Assembly: GCA_018897155.1 (NCBI GenBank)
Contig: JAHILE010000029.1
Coordinates: forward strand, 117 to 64,116
Reading direction: 5' to 3'
DNA: 64,000 nt
DNA from: Nanobdellota archaeon
GTDB taxonomy: Archaea > EX4484-52 > LFW-46
Shown: positions 5,266 through 63,933 of the stretch, piece by piece
Layout: each line of letters begins with the position of its first letter
Numbering within the stretch: position 1 is the first letter of the stretch
Position numbers and translations under genes: made by a program
Notes under the pieces: generated by a model
What the model saw: only the letters and a program-made list of their open reading frames with translations
Databases searched by the model: none
What the model was told of the DNA's origin: nothing

Positions 5266-5355
5266 TTGGTGAATTTATGAAATCATGGAAATTTTTTAAC
5301 GGAAATGCAATTTCCAAGCTTTCATTTCCAAAGTAAAAGGTGAATGAAATGAAAT
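5266..5355 (+). promoter_or_regulatory. conserved promoter/5'-UTR module (copy A) upstream of RNase J-like gene
   Basis: TTTATGAAATCAT...GGAAATGCAATTTCCAAG...TTTCCAAAGTAAAAGGTGAATGAAATGAAA; near-identical module at 61240-61317; shorter copy at 59438-59477. Confidence 0.6.
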
Positions 5356-22328: not shown

Positions 22329-22598
22329 TTATTTTACAGCCTTTTCAAACTCATCCATGAAGTCTTTTGTCTCGGATTCACAGCGCTTTATTGCAGAAAC
22401 AAGGGCATTTCTTGGGTCCTTTGCCTTGACAATGATTTTCGGGCTTCCAAGCGAAGGGTGCTTCTTTTCATAGGCTGCAAGCGTTACGCTGTTGTCTTCC
22501 CATAGCGATTCTCTGATAAGATTAGGGATTGTATGCCTTTCGCCCTCGATTTCCACCACAAGGGAGTCTTTTTTCTCTTCAAGAACATTGATTTTCAT
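22329..22598 (-). CDS. rpoL: DNA-directed RNA polymerase subunit L (Rpb11 homolog)
   Basis: 89 aa; pattern MKINVLEEKKDSLVVEIEGERHTIPNLIRESLWEDNSVTLAAYEKKHPSLGSPKIIV matches RpoL/Rpb11 dimerisation fold. Confidence 0.8.
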   Translation of the reverse strand: MKINVLEEKKDSLVVEIEGERHTIPNLIRESLWEDNSVTLAAYEKKHPSLGSPKIIVKAKDPRNALVSAIKRCESETKDFMDEFEKAVK

Positions 22599-22926
22599 TT
22601 TTAATCACTTTCTTCACCGAAAAATGAAATCCTTTCACAAGCTTCGCTTGTTTTGGGATTTAATGTTCCCAAAAGCTTGAAAAGCCATAGGCTTTTCAGG
22701 ACTCTAGGCTTTTCGGCATTCCCGAAAAAGCTTCAAGTTCGCAGCAGCGAACGAGATGATTTTCATAATTATCAGTTTTCTATCATTGTGAGTATAGATT
22801 TAAATAGATTAAAAACCGCACAATTCTGTATTTTCGGCATGCGTCGAAAAATACATGCCCTAATCACAAAGATTCATAAATGCATTGCAGCACTTTTTAT
22901 ATATCTTCGCGCAACTAAGTTAACAT

Positions 22927-26121: not shown

Positions 26122-26862
26122 TCAAGGAATCGGAACCCAAACAGGTTGTATTGAAGGATTTTCTTCAAGATGCGTTTCTTGTGCAAATTTGTAAATATCT
26201 TTTATTGGAAAGTTGGTATATTCTTCAATTAATAAATCCATTTCCTCAAGACCTATTTTTCCTAAGTATTTTTCTTTTAATTCTTTTTCTGCGCGAGCAT
26301 ATTCTTCAGGCAGATTCTTTCTTCCATTAATTTTGTTTGATAAGAATTTTCTAGTTTGCCATAATGCATTAGCAGGTATATAAAAAAGGTCAATAACGGG
26401 TATTGAAGGCCCTACCGGCATTATTCTATAATGCTCTTCGCGGGCGTAAATCACTCTTTTAATTCCAAGTTTATCGTTCGTCCTATCCATTGCAATAGGA
26501 CTATAACAACCCATTATTGAAAGTTCTTCAATCGTTTCTTCAAGTTCTTTTGATTTTGGACCCCAAATACACGGTTGATTAAACGGTATGTACACATTTT
26601 CTTTTTTAGGTATTTCTTTATCAATTAAAAATGCTATTTGTTGGTAATCCGGAGGATAAAACTCGATAGGTTTTTTTGATTTTCCAACAAGATGCAATAC
26701 GAAGTCTCTTAAATATTTCTCATTATCGGTTGTACGTCTCATAATAATCCTCAAAAATAAATTGTTTTTTGGAATTATTAAATATCCAACGCACTTACTT
26801 GCGCCAAAAATCCTTTCGCTTCGCTCTAGGCTTTTTAGCACAAATTTATTCCGGCGCGGCAA
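26122..26862 (-). CDS. hypothetical protein
   Basis: 246-aa ORF; real start probably at an internal Met (MRRTTDNEKYL); no recognised domain. Confidence 0.5.
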   Translation of the reverse strand: MPRRNKFVLKSLERSERIFGASKCVGYLIIPKNNLFLRIIMRRTTDNEKYLRDFVLHLVGKSKKPIEFYPPDYQQIAFLIDKEIPKKENVYIPFNQPCIWGPKSKELEETIEELSIMGCYSPIAMDRTNDKLGIKRVIYAREEHYRIMPVGPSIPVIDLFYIPANALWQTRKFLSNKINGRKNLPEEYARAEKELKEKYLGKIGLEEMDLLIEEYTNFPIKDIYKFAQETHLEENPSIQPVWVPIP

Positions 26863-26904
26863 TTTGTGATAAAAATCCTTTCGCTTCGCTCTAGGCTTTT
26901 TAGC
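26806..26904. repeat. tandem pair of identical 34-nt repeats separated by a 31-nt palindromic spacer; member of a dispersed intergenic repeat family
   Basis: AAAAATCCTTTCGCTTCGCTCTAGGCTTTTTAGC at 26806-26839 and 26871-26904; spacer ACAAATT...AATTTGT; diverged copies near 22660-22760, 35225-35295, 55262-55350, 59689-59730. Confidence 0.85.
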
Positions 26905-27864
26905 TCAATTGTCCAAAGCTGAGACTTGAGCTAAAAATGCTTCAATCTGCAAATCTTCAGTCCCGCCCTCAACAATTCGGAATTCATATTCTCCAAGCTT
27001 GTCAATCAGGGCTGCTTTTGATTTATCCGGAATGTCGATATGCAGAATTTCGCGATGAAACGCCTTTATTACATCGAGCCCTGAAAGCCCGCGCATAATC
27101 ATTAAATCCGCCAGTTTCTTTCGCGCGTCCAAAAACTTCTTGTCAAGAGCCATTTTAAGAATTTCTTTTACTTCTTCGGGGCGCAAGGATGCTGCAACGG
27201 AATAAACGTCGTCTGCATCCACAGTTTTCTTGATTATAGACACTGACTGGAGAAGGTTTATTGCGCGCCTCATGTCGCCTTCAGCGACTCTCAGAAGCGA
27301 GTCCATTCCCGCCTTTGTGATTTCGAGCCCTTCAGTTTTCTCAATGCGGCGTATCTCGTTTTCAACATCTGCATCAGTCAATGGCTTGAAGCGGAAAATC
27401 GCGCATCTGGACTGTATCGGAGGAATCAGCTTTGATGAGTAATTGCACGAAAGAATAAATCTGGTGGTGTTTGTGTATTTTTCCATTGTCCTGCGCATTG
27501 CCTGCTGTGCTTCCTGGGTAAGCGCATCAGATTCGTCAAGAAATATTATTTTGAAATCCGAATTGAACGGCTTTATTCTTGCAAAATCCTTTATTTTGCT
27601 TCTGACAACATTTATTCCTCTTTCGTCAGATGCATTCGTTTCCATGAAATTGCGCTTCCAATCCTCGCCGTAAATCTCCTTTGCAAGCGCTATTGCTGCA
27701 GTTGTTTTTCCGACTCCTGCAGGTCCTGTGAATAGCATGTTCGGAAGCGACTTTTCTTTTACAAAGGCCTTCAGCCTCCCGATTATTTCCGAGTGCCCTA
27801 CTATGTCGTTAAGGCGTTCCGGCCTGTATTTTTCTGTCCAGATTTCAAACATGATCTTTTTCAC
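26905..27864 (-). CDS. rfcS: replication factor C small subunit
   Basis: EKYRPERLNDIVGH, Walker A LFTGPAGVGKTT, DEAD-like IIFLDESD, SRC motif (QSRCAIFRF). Confidence 0.9.
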   Translation of the reverse strand: MKKIMFEIWTEKYRPERLNDIVGHSEIIGRLKAFVKEKSLPNMLFTGPAGVGKTTAAIALAKEIYGEDWKRNFMETNASDERGINVVRSKIKDFARIKPFNSDFKIIFLDESDALTQEAQQAMRRTMEKYTNTTRFILSCNYSSKLIPPIQSRCAIFRFKPLTDADVENEIRRIEKTEGLEITKAGMDSLLRVAEGDMRRAINLLQSVSIIKKTVDADDVYSVAASLRPEEVKEILKMALDKKFLDARKKLADLMIMRGLSGLDVIKAFHREILHIDIPDKSKAALIDKLGEYEFRIVEGGTEDLQIEAFLAQVSALDN

Positions 27865-34437: not shown

Positions 34438-34554
34438 AGGTCCGTGGTCTAGTCATGCGATTGCATAGCAATTTTCCTTATGCTCCGTATGAGAAATTGG
34501 TATGACGCCGCACTCACACTGCGGAGATCCTGAGTTCAATCCTCAGCGGACCTA
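34438..34554 (+). tRNA. tRNA-Val(CAC) with a ~44-nt non-canonical intron in the D-loop
   Basis: Perfect 7-bp acceptor stem AGGTCCG/CGGACCT, T8, anticodon arm CCGCA-CTCACAC-TGCGG, T-arm CTGAG-TTCAATC-CTCAG, followed by T-run; D-arm is interrupted between AGT and TGGTA. Confidence 0.8.
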
Positions 34555-34958: not shown

Positions 34959-35681
34959 GCAAAACACGTCTTTATAAATTTTAGTGGATTAGTATATGAT
35001 GCACAAATCGAACACTTAGACAACTATACGAAACTATTAATTGATTTTGAGGCAATGCCTCAAAAGCTTCGAATGAAGTGAGATGAGTTTTATGCCTTTT
35101 GGCAATCAAAAATAAGCGTCACACAACCAATATCGAAAATAGCAAATTGCTTAACTTTTTAAGCGCATGAGAACTGGATTGTGGAATGTTTGTGCATTTT
35201 TAATCATTTCCAATATTCATTGGATTAAAATCCAATCGCTTCGCTCTTGGCTTTTCGGTTATGCCGAAAAAGCATCGAACGCGAGTGAGAGGAATATTTT
35301 TTATTTAAATTTTTTTTATCGGTGATTGTGATGCCGGTGGACTTTATTTGTTAATCGCGGAAAATGAATCAATTTCTTCAGTTGCGCCCACAAGTTCTTT
35401 GAACCTTTCTGATAATTATTCGGATTTAGTTCCAAATGCGCGCGTTTCATTCGCGCAGAAGTTTTTCGGTTTTAGTTTTGGCTTTAACTTCGATTTTGGA
35501 GTTTTGAGCTTTGCTCAAAAGCTTGGTGCTCTTAGCACCATGATTTTTGGATTTGGCTTTATTGTTTAGTTAAGAGCCATGCTTCAAGTTTTTTCTGAAG
35601 AAAGGCGTTTACTGTTACGGTTAATTATGATTATGATTTATATTGATGCTGACGAATGTCGGAAAATGAATTAGGGAAATA

Positions 35682-55250: not shown

Positions 55251-55475
55251 TCATCTCAACATGCATTGGATTGAAATCCTTTCGCAAGCTTTGCTTGCTC
55301 TAGGCTTTTTCAATATCCTCGAAAAAAGCTTGAAAGCGCTATCAAGCTTTCAAGATTTTTAGCCATTTTGAACTATTCACAAAGTTCATTGGGTTCGAAA
55401 GCATGAAAATTCACAAGAATCTTCAAGATTTATCAATTTATTTGGGCTAAAATCAACTTCCTGATAATGAATAAT

Positions 55476-55799
55476 TTACTGGCCGGTTGCCTGCGCAATC
55501 TCGAATTTTTTCATTCGTATTGCATTCATTGACTGAGTCTTTTTTCCGCAGGTTTTACATCCGTATCGTATCATGACTTTTTGCGATGTTTTTGCTCCTG
55601 CACGCCTGTTGTTTTCAAGTTTCGGATAAGGCGAGCCTCCGTAGCCATAGTCCAGCTTGACTGTTTTTCTTCGGCCTTTTTTCAATGAAGAGCCTGAGCG
55701 CCTTCCTGATGTTTTCACGCGCTCAAGCTTCTGATCAGTATGCTTATTACACTTTGGACAATAACGTTTTGCTTCTCTTGGGTACTTCATAAGGGGCAC
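55476..55799 (-). CDS. rpl44e: ribosomal protein L44e
   Basis: YCPKCNKHTDQKLERVKTSGRRSG...GCKTCGKK zinc ribbon typical of L44e. Confidence 0.85.
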   Translation of the reverse strand: MPLMKYPREAKRYCPKCNKHTDQKLERVKTSGRRSGSSLKKGRRKTVKLDYGYGGSPYPKLENNRRAGAKTSQKVMIRYGCKTCGKKTQSMNAIRMKKFEIAQATGQ

Positions 55800-59064: not shown

Positions 59065-59222
59065 TGGGTCAAGCCAGATTTGAACTGGCGACCTCCGCCT
59101 TTCATAAACTGCAAAGTGCTGGACTGCTGATAAATGACCATGCCGAAGGCATGGTCGCTCTAAGCGCCAGCCGATTATGCGGCTGTGTAAGGGCGGCGTC
59201 ATAACCACTAGACTATTGACCC
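59065..59222 (-). tRNA. tRNA-Val(UAC) with ~85-nt intron at the canonical 37/38 position
   Basis: Acceptor GGGTCAA/TTGACCC, D-arm GTCT-AGTGGTTA-TGAC, anticodon stem CCGCC...GGCGG with loop CTTACA interrupted by intron; T-arm GCCAG-TTCAAAT-CTGGC; intron contains perfect hairpin GACCATGCC-TTCG-GCATGGTC. Confidence 0.8.
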
Positions 59223-59437
59223 GTTTGAGATATTTTCGTGCTGATATTGTGGATTTAATAAATTCAAGTAATATTCTTTTAAAATGCTTAAATTCACAAT
59301 CTACTTAATCGCAGATATCAGAGATATCTGAAGAGCGCGATTAACTATAGTTATATAAATCTTAAAAGTATTAAGAACGTATGCTTTTTTAAAAGCACTC
59401 GAATAGTGAAACTGATGAAATCCTGATACTTCGTGTC

Positions 59438-59477
59438 AGGCTTTCGTTTCCAAAGAATGTGGTGAATGAAATGAAAT
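59438..59477 (+). promoter_or_regulatory. conserved 5'-UTR module (copy B, short) upstream of Zn-ribbon protein gene
   Basis: GGCTTTCGTTTCCAAAGAATGTGGTGAATGAAATGAAA. Confidence 0.55.
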
Positions 59478-59629: not shown

Positions 59630-59766
59630 TTTAAGGAGGATATTTTTATCTTGAAAATTCTTGCGAATTTTCAAGCTTTTTAATACAAAGAAAATCCTTT
59701 CGCTTTGCTCAAGGCTTTTTAGCCCAAAGTGAATGGCGAATAGTTAAAAATGGGGAGTGATTAAAA

Positions 59767-61045: not shown

Positions 61046-61055
61046 TATTTGGTGA

Positions 61056-61241
61056 TACAATATTACAATAAAATATGACCGTTCAAAATGCCTTTGTTGT
61101 GCAGGATGTGTTTCTATCTGCCAGAAGAACGCGATAACTTTTACAAAGATGCGGCCTGAAGTGGATGCAAAACTCTGCATTGACTGTGCCACCTGTGTTA
61201 AGTTCTGTCCAGTGGGCGCGATATCGATTTCTAAAAAATGA
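61056..61241 (+). CDS. 2x[4Fe-4S] ferredoxin, apparently frameshifted or lacking canonical start
   Basis: Stop-to-stop frame encodes C-x2-C-x3-C (CAGCVSIC) and CIDCATCVKFCP clusters; ATG at 61075 is in the +1 frame; one extra A in the A-run 61084-61088 would give MTVQKCLCCAGC... (58 aa). Confidence 0.55.
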   Translation, partial: YNITIKYDRSKCLCCAGCVSICQKNAITFTKMRPEVDAKLCIDCATCVKFCPVGAISISKK

Positions 61242-61317
61242 TTTTATGAAGTCATAAGGTTATGAAGGAAATGCATTCCAAGAGTTCCTTTCCAAAGAAT
61301 AGGTGAATGAAATGAAA
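61240..61317 (+). promoter_or_regulatory. conserved promoter/5'-UTR module (copy C) upstream of geranylgeranyl reductase
   Basis: TTTATGAAGTCATAAGG...GGAAATGCATTCCAAG...TTTCCAAAGAATAGGTGAATGAAATGAAA. Confidence 0.6.
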
Positions 61318-62513: not shown

Positions 62514-63572
62514 TTGATAAAAATTCTTGGTGCGGGTTTAAGCGGTCTTTCAGCGGCGATAAATCTTGCAAAGGCGGGAAAAGAAGTTGAAGTGCACGAA
62601 CTAAAAAGTGATGTCGGAATGCACATAAAAACCAATTTTCAGGCGCTTCTTAGCGATTCTGCACCGGAAGACTACTTGAGAAATCTAAATCTCAATCCCG
62701 AATTTTTTTATCATTCTTTAAGCAATGTTTTGTTTTGCACACGCAAAAAGGAATTCGACTTGAAAATACAAAAGAGCATTCCGTTTGTCTGCCGCGGCGG
62801 AAAACAATCTCTTGAATACGGGCTGTTTAAGGAAGCTGAAAAGGTTGGAGTACGTTTCGTGTTTAAGACTACGAAGAGAGAGAGAGACGTTGATATAATA
62901 GCTACTGGGCATAAAAACGCAGACATCGCAGCATTTGGCGCGGTTTACAAGGATAATGGTTTTCTAGGCGAAAGATTTCTAATGATGTATGATGATAAGT
63001 ATTCTCCAAAAGGCTGGTACTTATATGCAACGCCGCACCTCAAAGGCTATGTCAAGATAATGAATTGCGTTCTTAAGCCGCACACGCCAAAGGTTAAGGA
63101 TTTGTTCTTTAAGGCAATCAACGAGCGGGAAATACTGAAGAAAATAGTCGGCGGCCAAAAGCCCGTAGACTATCTTGGAGGTATCGGCGGGCTTGATTTT
63201 CCGATAAATGGCGTTATTGGCGGAAAATACTATCTTGGCGAGGCAGCAGGCTTTCAGGATCCTTTTCGAGGGTTTGGTATGAATTACGCTCTTGAATCAG
63301 GCAAGCTTGTAGCAGACGCCATACTTCAGAACAAGGACTACAACAAACTATGGAAGGAAGCATTTATGCCGCACATAAAAAAAGACTTCAGCAGACGCTT
63401 TATAATGTCTGTTTTTGGCGATATGTTTGTCGAAAATGTTTTTTCTAAAAGGATAAGAAATGGAGTGGTCGATTTTGAAAGCTTTGCTCCAGCAGGATTT
63501 TTTGGCAGGATCGCAATCGACTTTTTCTTTCGCATGGAATTGCTAAGACATAAAATCACAGGCTATTGGTAA
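62514..63572 (+). CDS. FAD-dependent oxidoreductase, GGR-related paralog
   Basis: N-terminal GxGxxG (IKILGAGLSGLSAAINLAKAGKEVEVHE); 352 aa. Confidence 0.6.
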   Translation: MIKILGAGLSGLSAAINLAKAGKEVEVHELKSDVGMHIKTNFQALLSDSAPEDYLRNLNLNPEFFYHSLSNVLFCTRKKEFDLKIQKSIPFVCRGGKQSLEYGLFKEAEKVGVRFVFKTTKRERDVDIIATGHKNADIAAFGAVYKDNGFLGERFLMMYDDKYSPKGWYLYATPHLKGYVKIMNCVLKPHTPKVKDLFFKAINEREILKKIVGGQKPVDYLGGIGGLDFPINGVIGGKYYLGEAAGFQDPFRGFGMNYALESGKLVADAILQNKDYNKLWKEAFMPHIKKDFSRRFIMSVFGDMFVENVFSKRIRNGVVDFESFAPAGFFGRIAIDFFFRMELLRHKITGYW

Positions 63573-63769
63573 ATTGCGGTATTCTTCGGGGTTCTTTAAT
63601 AGGGATCATGCATTTCATGGATTCGTATAACCATGATATTGACAGGGTGCAAAGGTGCGTCATACATTACGCAGTTCCCGACGGAAGAATTATTCCGTTC
63701 TGCGCGTTTAATGTCCTTCCGGAAAGTTACCGTGAGCAGATAAACAAAAAATTCGGAATTTCTACCTAA
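63566..63769 (+). CDS. hypothetical small protein (67 aa)
   Basis: ORF overlapping previous stop; 3' end overlaps first copy of terminal direct repeat. Confidence 0.3.
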   Translation: MVNCGILRGSLIGIMHFMDSYNHDIDRVQRCVIHYAVPDGRIIPFCAFNVLPESYREQINKKFGIST

Positions 63770-63933
63770 CTTCGCCACATGAACATTAAAGTTATTCAAG
63801 TTTTGCGTTTTTTAAAATTCACACTCAAATTTCAGTTTTTGTGAATTGATATTTGAGCTCAACTGCCCAAAAAACGCAAAACTTCAGAAAGTTACATTTT
63901 CTACCTAACTTCGCCACATGAACATTAAAGTTA
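63761..63933. repeat. 34-nt direct repeat (two copies, 139-nt period) enclosing nested inverted repeats
   Basis: TCTACCTAACTTCGCCACATGAACATTAAAGTTA at 63761-63794 and 63900-63933; internal inverted repeats GTTTTGCGTTTTTT/AAAAAACGCAAAAC and AATTCAC/GTGAATT. Confidence 0.8.

Follow-up and report, generated by a model that had tools for sequence, protein, structure and literature searches.

Three genes of unrelated function in one stretch of archaeal DNA begin behind almost the same leader; what kind of sequence do they share? The stretch, here called the window, comprises 64,000 nucleotides of contig JAHILE010000029.1 (Nanobdellota archaeon, assembly GCA_018897155.1), a DPANN archaeal metagenome-assembled genome (MAG). 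It is 99.98% identical to contig JBDRJO010000032.1 of GCA_043814905.1, labelled 'Nanoarchaeota archaeon' at NCBI, and its nearest named relatives carry the labels Aenigmarchaeota or Nanohaloarchaeota. The genes encode RNase J, a 52-aa HVO_2753-type zinc-finger protein (PF07754, ribosomal protein aS21) and geranylgeranyl reductase (GGR). Comparison with related genomes shows that each copy of the shared module is an insertion of ~55-72 nt directly after the ancestral ATGAAA start of its gene. We consider it probable, at roughly two chances in three (about 0.65), that the module is a non-autonomous mobile palindromic repeat, resembling repetitive extragenic palindromes (REP) and mycobacterial interspersed repetitive units (MIRU), which inserts at ATGAAA(T/C) starts and supplies a replacement translation-initiation region.

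Insertions at orthologous start codons

The three genes share TTTCCAAAG, followed after 4-5 nt by the 16-mer GGTGAATGAAATGAAA, which is exact in all three and is found exactly nowhere else in the window (5339, 59461 and 61302). With up to three mismatches GGTGAATGAAATGAAA is matched eight times, against a shuffle mean of 2.2 (none of 100 shuffles reached eight), and a repeat search of the window grouped the copies as one ungapped 41-nt family with identities of 85% and 66%. TTTCCAAAG alone is not enriched in the window (54 matches, 42 expected), and the signal therefore resides in the combined module. An earlier note, made from the sequence alone, had described the regions as nearly identical copies of a cassette duplicated before unrelated genes, the third one shorter. 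The motifs lie where it placed them, and the duplication is borne out. Near-identity, however, holds for the 3' ~40 nt, the 5' halves being alignable only with gaps, and the third copy (59415-59477) is of full length, with a different hairpin, CCTGATAC-TTC-GTGTCAGG. The similarity is not limited to the Shine-Dalgarno (SD) sequence and start codon; it runs through a pyrimidine tract and the hairpin.

We compared the window with orthologous or matching loci from related genomes (designated L003, L015 and so on), whose proteins are 74-94% identical to those of the window. The census gave 13 intact copies of this small, non-coding element (55-72 nt) in roughly 300 kb, with presence/absence polymorphism at five genes: RNase J, aS21, GGR, L44e and L24e.

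At the RNase J gene the window carries the insert, as do the 99.99%-identical assemblies L021 and L022; the site is empty in L003, L005 and L007. The three empty sites read gatgctctttGGTGAnnnnATGAAATTTTAC; the window reads gatgctctttGGTGAatttATGAAAT, then 72 nt ending in GGTGAATGAAATGAAAT, then TTTAC. The ancestral SD GGTGA (5268-5272, plus strand), whose context gatgctctttGGTGA is the same in the insert-free loci, now lies 5' of the insert, and the displaced start ATGAAA (5277-5282), which relatives read uninterrupted in GGTGAnnnnATGAAATTTTAC, opens a 19-codon upstream open reading frame (uORF), MKSWKFFNGNAISKLSFPK, with its stop at 5334-5336. Copy 1 itself (5283-5354, plus strand, 72 nt in the register T...ATGAAA; nhmmer E=1.2e-15; covariance model (CM), 78 bits) is made up of the hairpin (5284-5318), CTTTCATTTCCAAAG (5319-5333), a new SD GGTGA (5339-5343) and the working ATG (5349-5351). 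The native TATA box and leader of the gene are conserved upstream in the window and in the insert-free relatives alike.

The aS21 site was compared in eight loci, all of which have a common promoter (TTATATAAAT) and leader, matching almost base for base. In L015, L016, L017 and L025 the SD runs straight into ATGAAATG (the empty sites read GTGATatctATGAAATGTACAG in the first three and GGTGAaaaacATGAAATGTACC in L025); in the window, L024, L027 and L019 the insert is placed after ATGAAAT. In the window (plus strand), the ancestral SD GTGA (59406-59409) and the displaced ATGAAA (59415-59420), which opens the uORF MKS-stop, are followed by the 56-nt copy 2 (59421-59476; CM 77 bits), with its hairpin at 59422-59440, CTTTCGTTTCCAAAG at 59441-59455, the new SD at 59461-59465 and the working ATG at 59471-59473. 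A search with the 52-aa aS21 protein gave a single match.

At the GGR gene the window has a copy, and L010/L015 (Ga0172368/70) have one of a different variant; the site is empty in L023 and L025, which read aaaaaGTGATTnTATGAAACTTGAA, in L019, which reads ATGATGATT, and in L024. In the window (plus strand) the displaced ancestral start has become ATGAAG (61246-61251) and opens another MKS-stop uORF. The old SD, which overlapped a ferredoxin stop codon (61239-61241), is degraded there, with ATGA for GTGA. The 66-nt copy 3 (61252-61317) has a decayed hairpin (remnant at 61253-61282), followed by AGTTCCTTTCCAAAG (61283-61297), the new SD (61302-61306) and the working ATG (61312-61314). At this gene the site is empty in L023, whose GGR has 89% amino-acid identity to that of the window, yet filled in the more distant L015 (77%).

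Of the two remaining genes, L44e (55476-55790 of the window, minus strand) has no insert in either the window or L019 and carries two tandem copies in L009/L015 and again in L025, and L24e is empty in the window and L025 and filled in L019 and L009. The tandem pairs are direct units (L009, 2211-2330; L025, 4130-4249), and the two units within each pair carry differing hairpins. Hairpins of different subfamilies also fill the same site in different genomes, with four variants at aS21 and further cases at GGR and L44e. The window GGR copy is 79% identical to the window RNase J copy and 68% identical to the GGR copy in L015 (Ga017236x), which in turn is 85% identical to the L44e copy of its own genome; copies are thus more alike within one genome than at the same site in other genomes. 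Recurrence of the copies in independent assemblies (NCBI, JGI and Logan) shows that they are not an assembly artefact.

All 13 copies stand at start codons, and the native empty sites read ATGAAAT or ATGAAAC, sequences of which the window holds 38 and 17, respectively, counting both strands. This means either targeting of the SD-ATGAAAY context or the purging by selection of insertions elsewhere. No intact copy was found at the window genes that start with ATGAAAA (24285 and 35951), nor any additional copy in the ~10 kb beyond the window start (L021).

The insertions leave the N-termini of the proteins unchanged, which supports starts at the ATGs 5349 and 61312, as the earlier note had proposed in place of upstream GTGs, and at 59471. 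Homologue N-termini and deposited protein lengths agree: RNase J homologues have 437 aa and begin MKFY, and the deposited NCBI annotation gives 395 aa for GGR and 52 aa for aS21. The element also accounts for errors of start-codon and N-terminus annotation, namely the GTG starts of the open reading frame (ORF) track, a 409-aa GGR (P0125) and a 71-aa aS21 (P0241). Gene callers extend into the element, giving MISKLSFPKKMVNE before MKL... in the L010/L015 GGR and MKSWNIISKLSYANIMVNH before MKC... in the L027 aS21, and the window GTG starts 5340, 59459 and 61303 give (M)NEMK... or MVNEMK....

Anatomy of the element

A filled site reads, in order, native SD and spacer, old ATGAAA, T, hairpin, pyrimidine tract with AAAG, 4-5 nt, GGTGAATGAA, new ATGAAA and the gene. 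The hairpin has the form C-N-T-G, 4-6 variable bases, loop, complement, C-A-N-G, and at least four subfamilies of stem can be told apart (GGAAAC/GTTTCC, GACAC/GTGTC, GCCAC/GTGGC and CCTCTCGC/GCTTGAGG). The tract 3' of the hairpin has the consensus CTTTC(A/C/G)TTTCC-AAAG (CTTTCATTTCC-AAAG). A second tail variant, TTTCATATGCAA...ATGGTGAATCAT, occurs in L027 and in the second L025 copy; an arrangement with the native SD on the gene side in L025 was considered and dropped, because L027 places GGTGAATCAT in this variant.

The hairpin is preserved by compensatory change. For a 15-pair structure in alignment A2, 85.9% of cells are paired against 74.2% in shuffles, and 24 cells are changed on both sides against 9.5 (0 of 500 shuffles in either case), figures to be read with the copies being mutually related and the structure derived from those same copies; in slid registers the pairing is 25-48%. 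The six outermost pairs connect the old AUGAAA with a downstream UUUCAU, and the inner stem covaries among copies. In minimum-energy folds (ViennaRNA), which like the uORF counts below cover 12 copies, all six bases of the old AUGAAA are paired in nine and the GAAA part alone in two. One copy is a perfect 14-bp palindrome, ATGAAATCATGCCA/TGGCATGATTTCAT, and window copy 2 folds at -14.5 kcal/mol with the old AUGAAA within the stem; in window copies 1 and 3 the loop is enlarged or the stem decayed, and they fold no better than shuffles (z +0.26 and -0.33). By inference, translation starts at the new AUG and the hairpin silences the old one.

The earlier note had read the palindrome and identical leader upstream of three genes as a shared promoter with an operator for one transcription factor, defining a regulon. 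The 15-nt palindrome GGAAATGCAATTTCC, however, is perfect in copy 1 alone and is not enriched in the window (10 matches with up to three mismatches, 6.4 expected). What is conserved across copies is a larger stem, CNTG...CANG, in which the sequence differs and only the pairing is kept, the opposite of a sequence-specific operator. The module lies inside the transcribed leader, downstream of the ancestral SD and ATG, and the supposed promoter box TTTATGAA(A/G)TCAT consists of ancestral spacer, start codon and the first bases of the insert. The module has no TATA-like box such as the TTATATAA of neighbouring genes; aligned promoters of relatives place native TATA boxes and leaders farther upstream, conserved where the module is absent. 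We therefore regard a promoter and operator as highly improbable.

In the tail, each of the two non-gene frames has a TGA, and the real ATG is overlapped by a mini-ORF, ATG-AAA-TGA. uORFs that open at the old ATG have 3-19 codons in varying frames, and in two of the 12 the stop is a TGA that lies one base 5' of the new ATG. The L027 copy is in frame and stop-free, and is annotated as a 71-aa aS21 fusion with a 19-aa N-terminal extension. Since the length, frame and sequence of the uORFs are not conserved, we rejected a conserved leader peptide. A bulge-helix-bulge intron was also rejected, as there are no staggered 3-nt bulges and excision would not restore the ORF.

Translational bypassing is known from phage T4 gene 60 and from mitochondrial 'byp' elements, and here it would have ribosomes initiate on the old AUG-AAA, take off there, jump across the insert and come down on the matching AAA. 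ATGAAA is indeed matched on both sides of the insert, the hairpin is located at the take-off site, a stop follows soon after in many copies (MKS-stop, MKY-stop), and the SD-like GGTGA lies 5 nt 5' of the landing site. A nascent chain of two residues, however, cannot supply the peptide signal that known bypassing needs, the stop does not immediately follow the take-off codon and is absent or distant in several copies, and with a full SD and then AUG at the landing site ordinary initiation is simpler. We give bypassing hardly any credence.

A third alternative is that the module is a regulatory cassette of the host mRNA, in which hairpin and pyrimidine tract exert translational control and co-regulate ribosomal proteins, RNase J and GGR, either as a binding site for a protein or small RNA, or as a switch whose CUUUCAUUUCC would pair with either the old AUGAAA or the new SD region. 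The compensatory changes in the hairpin, the divergence of tails beside intact hairpins and the ribosomal protein genes among the targets (three of five) would all fit such a function; the tract can alternatively pair with GGUGAAUGAAA, as it does in the minimum-energy fold of copy 1. However, tract and SD are invariant, leaving this alternative pairing without covariation support, in close relatives these genes are without the cassette, the occupancy of which is patchy, the hairpins of window copies 1 and 3 are weak or decayed, as the z-scores above indicate, and uORF length and frame are not conserved. There is no Rfam match either: in the window no family but tRNA attains the gathering score, and permissive scans of the element regions returned far-subthreshold noise. 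A host cassette therefore appears unlikely, though it deserves more weight than an operator or bypassing.

The ends of the element bear on how it might move. The palindrome is confined to the 5' part, and the ~32 nt of tail behind it are unpaired. ATGAAA flanks every copy; at GGR the left repeat is ATGAAAT or ATGAAGT and the right one ATGAAAC. The left flank is (ATG)AAAT or AAGT in all copies, which fits a fixed short target without duplication and equally a 6-nt duplication.

Possible routes of spread and comparison with known systems

If the module is a mobile repeat, as we favour, it would spread within the genomes of one DPANN clade by inserting at ATGAAAY start codons. Its new SD (GGTGA) and ATGAAA would restore the reading frame and leave the protein unchanged, its internal TTTCAT would pair with the displaced ATGAAA and hold the old start in a long hairpin stem, and ribosomes that initiate at the old AUG would soon run into a stop, or into a TGA immediately 5' of the new AUG. 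It would then be selfish DNA persisting in a gene-dense genome by repairing the one function that it interrupts, and copies landing on other ATGAAAY sites would be lost, since they would destroy genes. Such spread would require either an enzyme, possibly a single-strand nuclease that recognizes the hairpin in the manner of REP/RAYT or IS200/IS605 systems, or templated recombination between start regions. The complementarity of TTTCAT and ATGAAA could serve to silence the old start in RNA or to recognize the target in DNA. A more specific version, in which the element homes via its own sequence, TTTCAT(TTC) acting as a guide that pairs with the target ATGAAA on single-stranded DNA before a hairpin-recognizing nuclease inserts it, is unlikely and put forward only tentatively, by analogy with the guide sequences of IS200/IS605 ends.

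The copies might also have arisen without dedicated mobility, by templated recombination or gene conversion through GGTGA-N4-5-ATGAAA microhomology, or by Campbell-type integration of small circles, with unequal crossing-over generating the tandems. The 3' end of the element is itself a start region, ATGAAA and often GGTGA... occur at both junctions, and tandem arrays exist in L009/L015 and L025. The L019 aS21 gene has a canonical SD on the distal side, as rearrangement would yield, and no transposase was found in the loci examined. Against this, gene-side homology amounts to only 6-7 nt, the tandem units belong to different hairpin subfamilies and hence are not simple duplications, and relatives consisting of the hairpin only, whose asymmetric flanks AAATCATG...CAAGCTTT are conserved, turn up at unrelated intergenic positions and within a tRNA intron, which points to recognition of the hairpin. 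On balance, recombination alone is a possible but rather improbable origin.

Several observations weigh against a mobile repeat. Intact copies number only 13 in roughly 300 kb, and every one of them comes from uncultured MAGs or contigs of one clade. The hairpins stay intact while the tails decay (CCTCTCGCTAAAGCTTGAGG, for example, is identical at three places), which could reflect host function instead of recent movement, and the share of ribosomal protein genes among the targets is a possible hint of regulation. Terminal inverted repeats were not found, the 5' end TCNTGG... and the 3' end ...GGTGAATGAA not being inverted copies of each other. The flanking 6-nt ATGAAA is indistinguishable from sequence carried by the element, which blurs its exact ends and the chemistry of insertion, and at some sites precise loss instead of independent gain may apply. 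In the ~300 kb examined we found no mobilizing enzyme; DDE_Tnp_1 genes are present in L015 and L007 with flanks unlike the element, and the gene tables of the loci compared list no Y1_Tnp family.

The DDE_Tnp_1 genes lie at L015 15425-21000 and L007 198-1064; in L015-L017 a block of small unannotated genes adjoins them. The window has neither the transposase genes nor the block at the matching place, and together they may constitute an integrated element. A classical MITE (a miniature transposable element with inverted repeats) derived from these transposases was rejected, because there are no terminal inverted repeats and the ends are unrelated.

The closest precedent for the archaeal element is the mycobacterial MIRU. 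A 2025 review (PMC12548453, citing Supply et al. 1997) describes MIRUs as mobile repeats that settle at start codons, barely affect expression and are coupled to the gene by a -4 overlap; they are non-coding repeats of 40-100 bp, interspersed or in tandem, and the downstream gene is still expressed. The archaeal element shares the start-codon location in every copy and the tandem pairs, present at two loci. A MIRU differs in coupling an internal ORF by the -4 (ATGA) overlap; the archaeal element brings a full SD, ATGAAA and an anti-start hairpin, and ATGA overlap is seen only in its trivial ATG-AAA-TGA tail mini-ORF. The hosts belong to different domains, and a relationship in sequence is not expected.

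With REP and REPIN sequences the element has in common an extragenic palindrome with conserved flanks and a covarying stem, AAAT-C(A/C/T)TG-(stem)-CA(A/G)G-CTTT; the inverted doublets of REPINs, however, were not found, the pairs here being direct tandem units. The constant short left flank recalls the target-specific, duplication-free insertion of IS200/IS605 elements. In contrast to PATEs of the IS200/IS605 type, there is one conserved hairpin and not two subterminal ones, and the 3' tail gives weak, invariant alternative pairings. The SD/start tail and the start-codon target are features of neither REPs nor PATEs, and no gene for RAYT/TnpA, the mobilizers of both, was seen in the gene tables of the fetched loci.

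Like Correia/NEMIS and ERIC MITEs, small non-autonomous repeats that lie 5' of unrelated genes, form transcribed hairpins and alter or supply expression signals, the module is found before non-homologous genes, and it fits the pattern of 'putative mobile promoters', defined by an upstream region shared among such genes (PMC3575422), but its signals are translational, not transcriptional. It further differs from MITEs and mobile promoters in having no terminal inverted repeats, no matching autonomous insertion sequence and no promoter, and in sitting after the ancestral start.

Inserts are also tolerated inside genes, as in the case of Rickettsia palindromic elements, 'byp' elements, inteins and introns. 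All of these are selfish inserts that neutralize their own damage, as the archaeal element would, although by in-frame translation, bypassing or splicing and not by replacement of the start site. Searches of the literature turned up no account of an element like this from archaea in general or DPANN in particular. A scan of a genome collection (species representatives, the source MAG not included) for TTCCAAAG-N3-6-GGTGAATGAAATG gave two chance bacterial matches only, and a scan of viral contigs found nothing. The metagenome matches L011-L014, including L012, were rejected as chance, their similarity being confined to the SD part.

Related hairpins, neighbouring observations and significance

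Beyond the intact copies, the window contains hairpin-only units, AAAT-CATG-(covarying stem)-CAAG-CTTT, scattered in intergenic DNA; a pattern scan gave six matches, against 0.04 in shuffles. Among them are AAATCATGGTGC-TAAG-AGCACCAAGCTTT (35518-35546, minus strand), also matched by covariance model R1 over model positions 4-33 (E=0.061), and AATCTTGAAAGC...GCTTTCAAGCTT (55326-55357, minus strand), found by the pattern scan. Two probable degenerate relatives retain more of the element. One, with hairpin, CTTTCGAACCCAATG tract and GTGAAT, lies 5' of a small ORF between L44e and the next gene (55365-55436, minus strand; R1, 23.4 bits, E=0.0076), and the other lies 5' of the EF-1beta gene, its hairpin being followed by CTTTTTAGCCCAAAG-TGAAT-GGCGAATAG (59689-59751, plus strand; R1, 21.7 bits, E=0.019). 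A possible old, decayed copy, ATTAAAT-hairpin-GGATTTCATTTTTC-GGTGAAG...ATGAAAAT, precedes an RpoL-like gene (22592-22664, minus strand) with a weak R1 match (16.8 bits, E=0.24); the orthologue in L003 has an unrelated leader and start.

A tRNA with a ~87-nt intron (59065-59222, minus strand) was detected by Rfam at 55.9 bits and missed by ARAGORN; in L024 the intron of the orthologous tRNA holds a hairpin from the repeat family just described, AATCATGGCAC-TTC-GTGCCAAG-CTTTCC. A third tRNA (34481-34554, plus strand) was detected by Rfam alone.

A second hairpin family, AAAATCC-TTTC-(short stem-loop)-TCTA-GGCTTTT with A-run and T-run flanks, occupies intergenic positions in both orientations (22625-22661, 26799-26843, 26864-26908, 35219-35263, 55272-55308 and 59683-59727), including one tandem pair 65 nt apart. 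Its members may represent terminator-like elements that act in both directions, or be related to the start-codon element, with which they share GAAATCC...GGCTTT.

The ferredoxin ORF mentioned above (61051-61241, plus strand; ITIKYDRSKCLCCAGCVSICQ...CIDCATCVKFCPVGAISISKK) encodes a 2x[4Fe-4S] protein between the NIF3 and GGR genes and is uncalled in the deposited annotation. It has no ATG, GTG or TTG before the first cysteine cluster, an in-frame TGA lies inside its SD (61053-61055), and its first codons are ATT ACA ATA; the start is probably at ATT (61062) or ATA. The layout is the same in L019.

Near the contig end a perfect 36-nt direct repeat, TTTCTACCTAACTTCGCCACATGAACATTAAAGTTA, occurs at 63759-63794 and 63898-63933, 139 nt apart. 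Its first copy overlaps the end of a 67-aa ORF (63566-63769), at the position of which L015, L019 and L025 have a radical-SAM gene of ~520-530 aa; this gene may be truncated in the window genome. At the other end, GCA_018895095.1 and contig 10 of GCA_043814905.1 (L021 and L022) match the window at 99.99% from position 17 and not over positions 1-16, and GCA_043814905.1 seems to hold the region on two contigs (10 and 32), which suggests redundancy or a join in the MAG. In one relative (L025, 17113-20685) the UvrB gene contains an intein with Intein_splicing and LAGLIDADG_3 domains.

For annotation, MNEMK or MVNEMK N-termini could flag element-bearing genes in databases. The copies could serve as polymorphic markers, akin to variable-number tandem repeats, for tracking strains in uncultured DPANN populations, and in its tail, GGTGAATGAAATGAAA, the element offers a natural start region that is compact and portable and has a stop in each off frame. 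If start-codon homing is true, it would be the first such mobile element described in archaea, and a force homogenizing ribosome-binding sites and second codons across a reduced genome. More broadly, a mobile repeat of the kind we favour would be an archaeal counterpart, differently built, to the little-studied MIRU strategy; it would mean that selfish DNA can persist in a ~1-Mb gene-dense symbiont genome by landing on start codons with a spare ribosome-binding site and start, and suggests that the 5' leaders and the SD and second-codon patterns of these archaea have perhaps been shaped in part by mobile DNA.

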